Source: Escherichia coli
GTDB taxonomy: Bacteria; Pseudomonadota; Gammaproteobacteria; Enterobacterales; Enterobacteriaceae
Length of the DNA: 64,000 nucleotides
NCBI RefSeq assembly: GCF_003334815.1
Contig: NZ_QOWO01000007.1
Direction: 5' to 3' (one strand)
Shown: in pieces, positions 50,486-53,800 of the stretch
Layout: each line of letters begins with the position of its first letter
How positions within the stretch are numbered: the first letter of the stretch is position 1
Translations under genes and position numbers: made by a program
The notes under the pieces: generated by a model
Database searches by the model: none
Told to the model about the DNA's origin: nothing
Seen by the model: the letters and a program-made list of their open reading frames with translations, nothing else

Positions 50486-50815
50486 CAGATGTAAAATTAT
50501 TTTGTCCCTTTAATTATAAAGCAGAGTTATGTTTAAGCTCTGCTTTATTTATTTGAGTATTAATTCATACCGTTTTTTCATCATATAATTATTTATAATG
50601 AGAATGTGGTTTTAATTTGTAATTTATATTATATACACAATTTATATATTTCATGGTCTTTTTTTATTCACCTGAATTATAATTGTGAATTATAGGAAAG
50701 TATGTTTGATTAGATAATAATCTACTGGCAATACTGGATGTCTTCTATGTTTTAAATAACTAATTGGTCGGGTTAGTGCATCCGGCTTTCTTTATATTCG
50801 CCAGAAGGATTTATT

Positions 50816-53800
50816 ATGCAAAGGAAAACTCTATTGTCGGCCTGTATTGCATTAGCTCTGAGTGGTCAGGGTTGGGCGGCAGATATCACAGAGGTAGAAA
50901 CCACCACAGGTGAAAAGAAAAATACCAATGTGACTTGTCCGGCAGACCCAGGAAAACTCAGTCCGGAAGAGCTTAAACGCTTACCCTCTGAATGCTCTCC
51001 TTTAGTCGAACAAAACCTGATGCCATGGCTTTCCACAGGCGCTGCTGCGTTAATCACGGCCTTAGCCGTAGTGGAACTAAACGACGATGATGATCATCAT
51101 CATCGCAACAATTCTCCACTCCCACCGACACCCCCTGATGATGAATCAGACGACACTCCAGTTCCCCCAACTCCTGGCGGAGATGAGATAATACCGGACG
51201 ATCCGGATGATACGCCTACACCTCCCAAACCGGTTTCGTTTAATAATGACGTTATTCTCGATAAAACAGAAAAAACGTTAACTATTCGCGATTCAGTTTT
51301 TACTTATACCGAGAATGCTGACGGGACTATATCTCTGCAAGATAGCAATGGTCGTAAGGCAACGATTAATCTTTGGCAGATTGATGAAGCGAATAACACT
51401 GTTGCCCTTGAAGGGGTGAGCGCAGATGGCGCAACGAAGTGGCAATATAATCACAACGGTGAGCTTGTTATTACGGGTGATAATGCCACAGTAAACAACA
51501 ATGGCAAAACCACCGTTGACGGTAAAGATTCCACCGGTACGGAAATCAACGGTAATAACGGGAAAGTGATTCAGGACGGCGATCTGGATGTCAGCGGCGG
51601 CGGTCACGGTATTGATATCACCGGTGACAGCGCGACGGTGGATAACAAGGGCACCATGACCGTCACCGATCCGGAGTCCATGGGTATCCAGATCGACGGT
51701 GACAAGGCCATCGTCAATAACGAAGGCGAGAGCACCATCACCAACGGTGGCACCGGCACCCAGATTAATGGTGATGACGCCACGGCAAACAACAACGGCA
51801 AAACCACCGTTGACGGCAAGGATTCCACCGGTACGGAAATCAACGGTAATAACGGAAAAGTTATTCAGGACGGCGATCTGGATGTCAGCGGCGGCGGTCA
51901 CGGTATTGATATCACCGGCGACAGCGCAACGGTGGATAACAAGGGCACCATGACCGTCACCGATCCGGAGTCCATCGGTATCCAGATTGACGGCGACCAG
52001 GCCATCGTCAATAACGAAGGCGAGAGCACTATCACCAATGGCGGCACCGGCACTCAGATCAACGGTAACGACGCCACCGCGAATAACAGTGGAAAAACCA
52101 CTGTTGATGGAAAAGATTCCACGGGTACCAAAATCGCGGGCAATATCGGCATTGTAAATCTGGATGGTAGCCTGACTGTTACAGGCGGTGCGCATGGTGT
52201 TGAGAACATTGGTGACAACGGCACGGTTAACAACAAAGGAGATATTGTTGTTTCCGATACTGGATCGATTGGCGTGCTCATCAACGGTGAGGGGGCAACA
52301 GTATCCAATACGGGTGATGTTAACGTTAGCAATGAAGCGACAGGGTTCAGCATCACAACCAACAGTGGGAAGGTTTCGCTGGCAGGCAGTATGCAGGTTG
52401 GCGATTTCTCGACCGGGGTAGATCTTAATGGCAACAATAACAGCGTGACGCTGGCGGCAAAAGATCTAAAAGTGGTCGGGCAGAAAGCGACGGGCATAAA
52501 CGTTTCTGGCGATGCGAATACAGTGAATATCACTGGTAACGTTCTGGTTGATAAGGATAAAACCGCAGACAATGCGGCGGAATATTTCTTCGATCCATCC
52601 GTGGGTATCAACGTTTACGGCAGTGATAATAACGTGACGCTGGATGGAAAGTTAACTGTTGTATCAGACAGTGAGGTTACTTCTCGTCAGAGTAATTTAT
52701 TTGATGGCAGCGCAGAGAAAACGTCAGGTCTGGTTGTGATTGGCGATGGCAATACCGTTAATATGAATGGTGGACTTGAACTGATTGGAGAGAAAAACGC
52801 GCTTGCAGATGGGTCGCAGGTTACTTCCTTGCGCACAGGATATAGTTATACCAGCGTTATTGTCGTTAGTGGTGAGTCGTCGGTATATCTGAATGGAGAT
52901 ACGACAATCAGCGGAGAATTCCCTCTGGGGTTTGCCGGGGTTATTCGGGTACAGGATAAAGCTTTGCTGGAAATTGGCAGTGGCGCTACGCTAACAATGC
53001 AGGATATTGACAGTTTTGAACATCATGGGACAAGAACCCCAGAACTTACTTATGCTGATTCCGGTGCGAAAATTGTTAATAAAGGTACTGTTGAAATTCA
53101 GAATTTAGGTTTTGCTTTTGTTACTGGTGAAAATACAACAGGTATAAATAGTGGCACGATCTCGTTATTACAAAATGGTAAAGATCCGGCACCGTCTCCC
53201 ATTGTTTTACTGGCTACTAACGGAGGGAGCGCCACTAATGCAGGTACGATCACAGGTAAAGTGACGGAACAACATAGCGTATTTAACAAGTATTCAACGG
53301 GCACATCGAATTCATTTATTTTTAATAACGATGTCAGTAGCATAACAGGGTTAGTCGCTCAATCGAATAGCACAATTATCAATACTGACAGCGGCATCAT
53401 TGATTTGTATGGTCGTGGTAGTGTCGGCATGCTTGCTATAGCAGATTCAACAGCAGAAAATCAGGGTAAAATTACACTGGATTCTATGTGGGTAGATGCA
53501 AATGACACTACCGCAATGCGAGATATAGCTAGCAACAGCGCCATTGACTTCGGTACAGGTGTGGGAGTTGGTACTGATAGTTATAGTGGTGCAGGGAAAA
53601 ATGCAACAGCAATTAACCAATTGGGCGGTGTTATAACTATTTATAACGCCGGCGCAGGTATGGCGGCCTATGGCGCCAGCAATACAGTTATTAACCAGGG
53701 GACGATTAACCTCGAAAAAAATGGTAATTATGACGATAGTCTGGCAGCAAATACTCTGGTAGGGATGGCTGTTTATGAGCATGGTACTGCTATCAACGAC

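Follow-up and report, generated by a model that had tools for sequence, protein, structure and literature searches.

The interval from position 50486 to 51250 of a 64,000-nucleotide stretch of Escherichia coli DNA (contig NZ_QOWO01000007.1; hereafter the window) can be assigned with high confidence, for gene identity and regulation taken together, to the control region that precedes ydbA and to the 5' end of this gene, which encodes a known type Va autotransporter of the BigA/YdbA family. This is the gene of a known giant surface adhesin, a cryptic autotransporter, and gene, family and silencing are all already known. At the N-terminus of the protein, residues 22-139 form a family-specific conserved module without a predicted fold, which lies outside every Pfam family and for which we found no description in the literature searched. 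On balance, we lean towards explaining the region as a whole by an H-NS-bound ydbA control region followed by an N-terminal module that is secreted as the tip of the passenger. The tip mechanism alone, a secreted, disordered acidic distal tip on a flexible stalk with a VacA-like hydrophobic element, is proposed by analogy and is offered as a tentative suggestion.

Identity of the ydbA locus

In E. coli, the genes around the interval are arranged in the order paaX-paaY-ydbA-ydbC-ydbD. Bases 50400-51300 (901 bases) were 99.9% identical to K-12-like genomes, in which the identical ydbA start is annotated, and with paaY ending at position 50485 and the ATG of ydbA at position 50816, the spacer is exactly 330 bp long. 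YdbA matched all three Pfam domains PF25784, PF25783 and PF03797 (Table 1), the last of which provides the C-terminal 12-strand beta-domain of type Va autotransporters. A Sec signal peptide was identified by a rule-based reading, and an AlphaFold2 (AF2) model, which covered the first 300 residues of YdbA, consisted of regular short strands at residues 221-300 with a predicted local distance difference test (pLDDT) score of 85-94, as in a beta-helical passenger. Against the NCBIfam auto_BigA model (NF033178), an exception-level model, YdbA scored 1075.9 bits, far under the 3400-bit cut-off, and is thus a relative of Salmonella BigA and not BigA itself. While ydbA of K-12-like strains is split by the insertion sequences (IS) IS2 and IS30, the allele of the window is intact, and the window supplies an intact K-12-type ydbA allele.

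An AT-rich control region that travels with ydbA

The spacer between paaY and ydbA is an AT-rich tract of xenogeneic type that travels with ydbA. A strongly AT-rich spacer of 330 bp had been described in the original prediction, which was made from the sequence of this DNA, and windowed GC analysis bore this out; with a GC content of 25.5% compared to 49.5% for the whole window, the spacer is the minimum among all 330-bp windows of the 64 kb, 0.02% of which are as low, and 100-bp windows within it drop to 16-22% GC. In strains without the paa cluster, ydbA comes after ydbL and homology to the window begins right past the paaY stop, indicating that the AT-rich block belongs to ydbA. AT-rich regions were also present upstream of the homologues in Salmonella (30% GC between cysG and bigA), Enterobacter (27%, last 300 bp) and Rahnella (34%), where they sit in unrelated neighbourhoods. 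No conserved partner genes were found, as the neighbours differ among E. coli, Salmonella, Enterobacter and Rahnella.

In K-12, the spacer between paaY(+) and ydbA(+) is promoter island 1463061_385, one of 78 in this strain, and is marked as H-NS-bound in both the Kahramanoglou and the Oshima datasets (Panyukov and Ozoline, PMC3661553, Table 1). With the sigma54 motif as landmark (K-12 centre 1462947), this island maps to approximately 50461-50845 of the window. The K-12 spacer is H-NS-occupied and is classed as a transcriptionally unproductive "promoter island". Since the further autotransporter genes yfaL, ycgV and ydeK appear in the same table (PMC3661553), the silenced adhesin promoter is an established category, of which the ydbA spacer is a listed member. 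The spacer of the window has the very AT-rich tract of at least about 300 bp upstream of a gene that defines promoter islands (25.5% GC over 330 bp), and resembles the H-NS-bound islands, in which a highly AT-rich stretch of about 300-400 bp precedes a horizontally acquired surface-protein gene. It shows no difference in kind from them, except that the downstream ydbA is intact here and split by IS2 and IS30 in K-12. The original prediction had also proposed a silenced adhesin promoter, which agrees with the already published H-NS-bound promoter island in K-12, and had pointed to phased A/T tracts. We found no support for curvature or phasing as the basis. Fourier analysis of AA/TT dinucleotides gave a power at 10-11.5 bp of 0.53, compared to 0.64 ± 0.31 in 1000 dinucleotide shuffles (p=0.57), and thus gave no signal of phased A/T tracts; only six homopolymer tracts of at least 4 bases, irregularly spaced, were found in the spacer. 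Intrinsically curved DNA with phased A-tracts is therefore not supported as the basis of silencing.

The ydbA transcript is low but inducible, being 7.7-fold up in an rpoZ mutant (PMC5811629), and the papers searched contained no direct measurement that would show ydbA to be derepressed when hns is mutated. The K-12 counterpart of TTGGCATGGAAAAAGCA, a sigma54 binding motif within paaY, is the chromatin immunoprecipitation sequencing site IS16, 464 bp upstream of ydbA (PMC4591121), and judging from this match a sigma54-driven ydbA transcript with a long leader would be possible.

A conserved module at the N-terminus of YdbA

The module following the signal peptide comprises a Cys loop, a hydrophobic segment, a polar flank and an acidic linker or stalk (Table 1), with a net charge of -18 over residues 22-139. 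The hydrophobic segment of the original prediction, WLSTGAAALITALAVVEL, corresponds to residues 71-88 and overlaps the most hydrophobic stretch of YdbA; the 19-mer at residues 68-86 tops the 1922-residue protein with a Kyte-Doolittle mean of 1.78, ahead of the signal peptide (1.34) and the next passenger segment (1.29). Likewise, the linker rich in Pro, Asp and Thr was recovered at residues 98-139 (36% Pro), and the DDDDHHH string is present at residues 90-96, although its coordinates had been one base off (51083-51103 instead of 51082-51102). The linker does not lead directly into the beta-helix repeats as had been stated, as the BigA_N domain (PF25784, residues 140-220), which had been missed, intervenes. 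Outside the signal peptide, cysteines occur only as two close pairs, 41/60 and 1025/1030, and closely spaced Cys pairs were reportedly described by Leyton in 2011 as a pattern tolerated in secreted passengers.

With family alignments, AF2 returned a pLDDT of <50 at residues 1-38 and 62-125, about 60 in the Cys loop and about 90 in BigA_N and the beta-helix, and when the module was modelled alone the pLDDT was 50-63 and the hydrophobic segment did not form a helix. Hence, neither of the two AlphaFold2 runs gave a confident fold for residues 1-125. Sequence searches of the module against NCBIfam, Pfam, PADLOC and PDB returned nothing beyond auto_BigA, and no extended signal peptide region (ESPR) was matched in Pfam within residues 1-600, the signal peptide being just 21 residues long.

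An exhaustive phmmer search with residues 1-225 against 1.84 billion representatives found only 64 proteins, and the named sources of the matches were E. coli, E. albertii, Salmonella, Enterobacter, [Enterobacter] lignolyticus, Rahnella and Citrobacter. Most of the matches in word-indexed homologue searches were fragments at contig ends of E. coli and Salmonella, and many assemblies of these two break in the stalk repeat, resulting in such fragments. Three candidates (P0068, P0074 and P0083) were rejected as homologues, since they were spurious low-complexity matches.

The module was conserved in 27 diverse family members. From the N-terminus onwards, these share the signal peptide, an acidic stretch that varies, the C-P-x18-C loop, a further short acidic stretch with W-x-W at its end and the hydrophobic segment, followed by a flank of Asn, Asp, Gly, Ser and His, a variable number of Pro/Asp/Gly/Thr repeats and BigA_N. 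The N-terminus, which the original prediction had called unusual, is thus so in comparison to other autotransporters but, as the alignment shows, the norm within the BigA/YdbA family of Enterobacterales autotransporters. In the loop, C41 and C60 were invariant, P42 was found in 25/26 and L48 and L56 in 23/26 sequences, and the span from Cys to Cys was exactly 20 residues in 26 of the 27 sequences. The hydrophobic segment, composed across the family of 31% Ala, 15% Gly and 15% Val, has an invariant G75, while W71 was present in 21/26 and W69 in 12/26 sequences. Bulky residues occur at positions 72, 76, 79 and 83 with small ones elsewhere, giving a periodicity peak at 90-100 degrees, as in a helix that bears a single stripe of bulky side chains. 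Directly downstream of the segment, 15 residues contained 54 His, 79 Asp/Glu and 4 Lys/Arg over the 27 sequences, corresponding to 13.3% His compared to 1.0% in the full proteins, and to 1.0% Lys+Arg compared to 5.2%. At columns 90-97, the commonest residue reached only 38-46%, and the counterparts of the Asp4-His3 string vary (DDGNHHH, HDDGNHAH, NNGGHSHHH, GGGGDDHH and others).

The stalks of the homologues consist of 9-residue repeats of the PPDDGGxxT type in variable copy number and range in length from about 20 to 170 residues. In E. albertii, the orthologues (P0033 cluster) of 1796-1913 residues differ in steps of nine residues, which fits copy-number variation of a 27-bp stalk repeat encoding PPDDGGNVT. 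In three members lacking BigA_N (P0066, P0077 and P0081) the module passes straight to the repeats, which makes the N-terminal module a unit of its own. Among three E. coli alleles, no amino acid change was found in the Cys loop and the flank (synonymous divergence, dS, 0.08-0.37), and the ratio of nonsynonymous to synonymous divergence (dN/dS) of the stalk was 0.03-0.34; judging from these alleles, loop, flank and stalk are under strong purifying selection in E. coli, without diversifying signals. The DDDDHHH codons, GAC(GAT)3(CAT)3, form a short trinucleotide run, and one database variant (P0014) reads DDDDHH, as in-frame slippage would give, in a record that looks poorly assembled.

YdbA and Salmonella BigA agree in their domain order and in the N-terminal module, with BigA_N, BigA_beta and autotransporter domains in both; residues 1-103 of YdbA align to positions 1-98 of the NF033178 profile, and both genes have an AT-rich upstream region. 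On the other hand, YdbA with 1076 bits against the cut-off of 3400 is a paralogue-level relative, the neighbours are cysG and DUF4223 for BigA and paaY and ydbC for YdbA, and the stalk of YdbA is short and degenerate, without perfect 9-residue repeats.

Proposed export and possible functions of the N-terminal module

The most hydrophobic stretch of this secreted protein of 1900 residues sits just behind the signal peptide, and its passage through Sec and the outer membrane, as well as its later role, pose a clean and testable question of autotransporter topogenesis. As additive Hessa values, the free energy (dG) of the segment ranged from +0.1 to +4.1 kcal/mol across the family (mean +2.0) and was +2.2 in YdbA, compared to reference values of +3.2 for the VacA N-terminus, +2.2 for a viral fusion peptide and -2.9 for the glycophorin anchor. 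On this measure the segment is only marginally membrane-competent, resembling the VacA N-terminus and the viral fusion peptide and unlike the glycophorin anchor. A stop-transfer sequence after a cleaved signal peptide would strand passenger and barrel in the cytoplasm, hence the segment must be exported, and its marginal hydrophobicity together with the negative downstream flank free of Lys/Arg fit this requirement. The combination of stop-transfer hydrophobicity and positive-inside flanks that marks an integral inner-membrane helix was absent. In autotransporters, secretion proceeds with the C-terminus first and the N-terminus last. A disordered passenger depends critically on its acidic residues to be secreted, and an acidic character predominates among natural passengers (PMC4174580). 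The strongly acidic, disordered module fits this route.

According to the tentative tip mechanism, the inner membrane would fail to retain the hydrophobic segment after Sec targeting and cleavage of the signal peptide, its hydrophobicity lying just above the stop-transfer threshold and the downstream flank being negative and without positive charge. The whole acidic module would then cross the outer membrane last, as a disordered polypeptide, and would come to lie at the far end of the passenger, as a tip carried by a flexible stalk. There, the Ala/Gly-rich segment might mediate membrane or self association like the hydrophobic N-terminus of VacA, whereas the Asp/His flanks would keep it soluble and may make it pH-sensitive. 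The passenger of VacA, a toxin of Helicobacter pylori, has an N-terminal hydrophobic GxxxG region (PMC6452728). VacA and YdbA have in common a hydrophobic, Gly/Ala-rich and marginally membrane-competent segment near the N-terminus of a passenger exported by Sec and autotransport. In contrast to VacA, to which no sequence relationship was detected, the segment of YdbA lies 47 residues from the mature N-terminus and behind a Cys loop, lacks three GxxxG motifs in tandem and leads into a stalk that is acidic and rich in Pro. We know of no pore or toxin activity of YdbA.

Several points weigh against the combined explanation of an H-NS-bound control region and a secreted tip. H-NS occupancy is taken from the 99.9%-identical spacer of K-12, in which ydbA is IS-disrupted, and not from the strain of the window, and no experiments on the topology, processing or function of YdbA or BigA were found in the literature searched. 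The dG values are simple additive sums on the scale of Hessa (2005) and not the output of the full predictor, and the binomial P values for the composition of the flank are overstated because the family sequences are related. Furthermore, AF2 showed no helix and no contact for the hydrophobic segment, YdbA itself has no tandem GxxxG and shares only the family-level pattern of small residues, and the W-x-W start together with the purifying selection on the "disordered" stalk suits a role in biogenesis or interaction equally well.

Such a biogenesis role, which is a serious and the main rival of the tip mechanism but which we still regard as rather doubtful, would make the hydrophobic segment, with its W-x-W start, a transient tether or chaperone-docking site of the periplasm or inner membrane. 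It would hold the N-terminal end of the passenger of about 1700 residues in an unfolded, secretion-competent state, as a functional analogue of the missing ESPR. The ESPR, which is thought to modulate inner-membrane and periplasmic steps, is likewise an extra N-terminal element of very large passengers, allowing a possible functional analogy; it is, however, part of the signal peptide and removed with it, whereas the element of YdbA comes after the predicted cleavage site. The lack of an ESPR despite the very large passenger, a segment more hydrophobic than the signal peptide, the lack of a fold in AF2, the strong purifying selection on loop, flank and stalk without diversifying signals, and the aromatic-x-aromatic motif (W71 in 21/26, W69 in 12/26) all speak for biogenesis, SurA being known to prefer Ar-X-Ar peptides. 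A strict disulfide loop and a stalk varying from about 20 to 170 residues are, on the other hand, not obviously needed by a transient tether, which would also have to enter the membrane from the periplasmic side after signal-peptide cleavage, a step for which we found no precedent, and the idea has no experimental support. The original prediction had suggested that the Asp4-His3 cluster could bind metal specifically or act as a signal for proteolytic processing, in line with the 13-fold enrichment of His beside Asp/Glu in the flank throughout the family and with a flank unchanged among the three E. coli alleles. We consider this improbable. The flank is conserved in composition and not in position (38-46% for the commonest residue per column at 90-97), a pattern that speaks against any defined motif for metal binding or cleavage; in several members 0-1 His is present, or runs of Gly/Ser take its place, and neither a known metal motif nor a Pfam match was found. 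Variation of the exact string among homologues is also what the prediction itself had named as grounds for dropping a specific motif. In addition, the ydbA mutations reported from strains evolved with a chelator map to other parts of the gene, most of them being synonymous (PMC10763504).

Anchoring in a membrane would give the segment a different fate. In an outer-membrane arrangement, the segment would move laterally into the outer membrane as hairpin secretion ends, with the Cys loop staying periplasmic and the Asp/His flank at the lipopolysaccharide surface, so that the passenger would be held at both ends. A length of about 19-20 residues, bounded by Trp on one side and by a polar Asn/Asp/His cluster on the opposite side, the lack of positive charge on either flank and the established secretion order, C-terminus first and N-terminus last, would agree with such an anchor. 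Still, it is very improbable, as AF2 predicts no helix, the hydrophobicity is marginal and the idea is purely inferential; to our knowledge, there is no helical outer-membrane anchor of this kind in autotransporters. Read jointly, Cys loop, hydrophobic segment and Asp/His flank could constitute a new kind of topogenic element, in which the segment, once secretion from C- to N-terminus is ending, would exit sideways from the seam between BamA and the barrel and remain as a helical outer-membrane anchor with the Cys loop behind it in the periplasm, or, in a milder version suggested by analogy, would act as an acid-triggered membrane-insertion tip like VacA or a fusion peptide. We judge this joint reading quite improbable; if the anchor were true, a giant adhesin would be held at both ends. 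An inner-membrane stop-transfer anchor could be proposed from the Kyte-Doolittle mean of 1.78, above the classical cut-off of 1.6, and a lipoprotein anchor from L-S-A-C at residues 7-10, which fits a lipobox. The BigA barrel has been grouped with NalP-type barrels (PMC3419190), and the LSAC string of YdbA recalls the NalP-type lipoprotein autotransporters. However, stop-transfer would leave passenger and beta-domain in the cytoplasm, which is incompatible with PF03797 autotransport, and the flank violates the positive-inside rule. The Cys at residue 10 is too near the N-terminus for a lipoprotein signal peptide and is not the conserved lipobox Cys of NalP-type proteins, being missing from Salmonella BigA and from further members, where ISIAIAL or IAIGVAL is found, and the passenger of YdbA is an adhesin-like beta-helix and not a protease. 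Both readings, which are extremely improbable, were therefore rejected on account of the incompatibility with autotransport, the acidic flank and the non-conserved Cys10.

Further features of the locus

Table 1. Features of the ydbA locus with their positions in the window.
Feature	Position	Strand	Remarks
sigma54 binding motif TTGGCATGGAAAAAGCA inside paaY	50339..50355	+	Exact match; faces ydbA; outside the interval proper
AT-rich paaY-ydbA spacer	50486..50815		GC 25.5%; matches the H-NS-bound "promoter island" of K-12
Intrinsic-terminator-like hairpin and T-tract just after paaY	50516..50548	+	13-pair stem, then TTATTTGAGT
21-codon small open reading frame MKYINCVYNINYKLKPHSHYK	50589..50654	-	RefSeq hypothetical protein WP_010723099.1; annotated in two K-12-like genomes
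Leader hairpin	50766..50787	+	8 bp, then TTCTTTATAT U-tract; terminator-like hit; 28 nt before ATG
Shine-Dalgarno AAGGA	50805..50809	+	Read from the sequence; 6 nt before ATG
ydbA	50816..56584	+	Single open frame, 1922 residues; type Va autotransporter, BigA/YdbA family
Sec signal peptide	50816..50878	+	Residues 1-21, MQRK / hydrophobic core / GWA, cleavage before AD; family-conserved
Cys41-Pro-x18-Cys60 loop	50936..50995	+	AF2 pLDDT about 60, short helices
Ala/Gly/Val-rich hydrophobic segment	51020..51079	+	Residues 69-88; most hydrophobic 19-mer of YdbA at residues 68-86
Asn/Asp/His polar flank	51080..51106	+	Residues 89-97; DDDDHHH at residues 90-96
Pro/Asp/Thr-rich acidic linker (stalk)	51107..51232	+	Residues 98-139; 36% Pro, net charge -10; AF2 pLDDT <50
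BigA_N beta-barrel domain (PF25784)	51233..51475	+	Residues 140-220, E=3.2e-33; AF2 pLDDT about 89, all-beta
294-bp tandem repeat	51476..52135	+	Tandem Repeats Finder; 2.2 copies, 90% matches; encodes first beta-helix coils
BigA_beta sandwich domain (PF25783)	55286..55537	+	Residues 1491-1574, E=3e-25
Autotransporter beta-domain (PF03797)	55901..56491	+	Residues 1696-1892, E=9.5e-19

Two terminator-like sites were found in the spacer where 0.1 were expected. The hairpin just after paaY is kept in a strain without the paa cluster (P836), and this apparent paaY terminator stays on the ydbA side in paa-less strains, with the boundary of the paa-cluster indel within about 14 bp of the paaY stop (window approximately 50486-50499; L005 1438-1826). 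The second site, the leader hairpin, lies within the last 60 nt or so before the ATG, which are nearly invariant in alleles that match the window at 87-96% identity over their 5' region, and in three alleles the changes in its stem preserve pairing (G-U to G-C, U-G to U-A). Its fold energy was no better than that of shuffles (z=0.27). From pairing and position, the hairpin could be an attenuator candidate, as every ydbA mRNA would contain it or start within it.

The small open reading frame MKYINCVYNINYKLKPHSHYK, which we take to be ynbG of K-12 (small protein YnbG), lies inside the AT-rich spacer and is divergent from ydbA; the literature search on ynbG returned nothing but abbreviations of yeast media. 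A search of Rfam with bases 50300-51000 returned just a chance snoRNA match (E=0.73), a sigma70 consensus scan of the spacer gave 3 sites against 2.5 expected and thus no excess, and the single weak match in the spacer to the high-affinity H-NS 10-mer TCGATAAATT (at most 2 mismatches) was uninformative.

BLAST of the K-12-like locus against the window placed the IS insertion points at approximately 53035-53039 and 53087-53089; these IS2 and IS30 points are 48 bp apart and within a local GC minimum (31% at 53050-53149). K-12 has one copy of the 294-bp repeat more than the allele of the window, and in other E. coli YdbA is annotated with between 1673 and 2838 residues, so that passenger length is highly variable. 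In S. Typhi, bigA (L006/L007 2501-7818) is split into two overlapping open reading frames of 1039 and 739 residues and is a pseudogene, consistent with the bigA decay reported in host-adapted Salmonella (PMC8011750). Many YdbA proteins are labelled "EntS/YbdA MFS transporter" in RefSeq (e.g., L005 1812-3799), apparently due to a mix-up of the names ydbA and ybdA that was propagated through RefSeq. Elsewhere in the window, the 330-bp stretch with the next-lowest GC content (31%) is found at approximately 22277-22620, between the minus-strand open reading frames 21184-22317 and 22684-26208.

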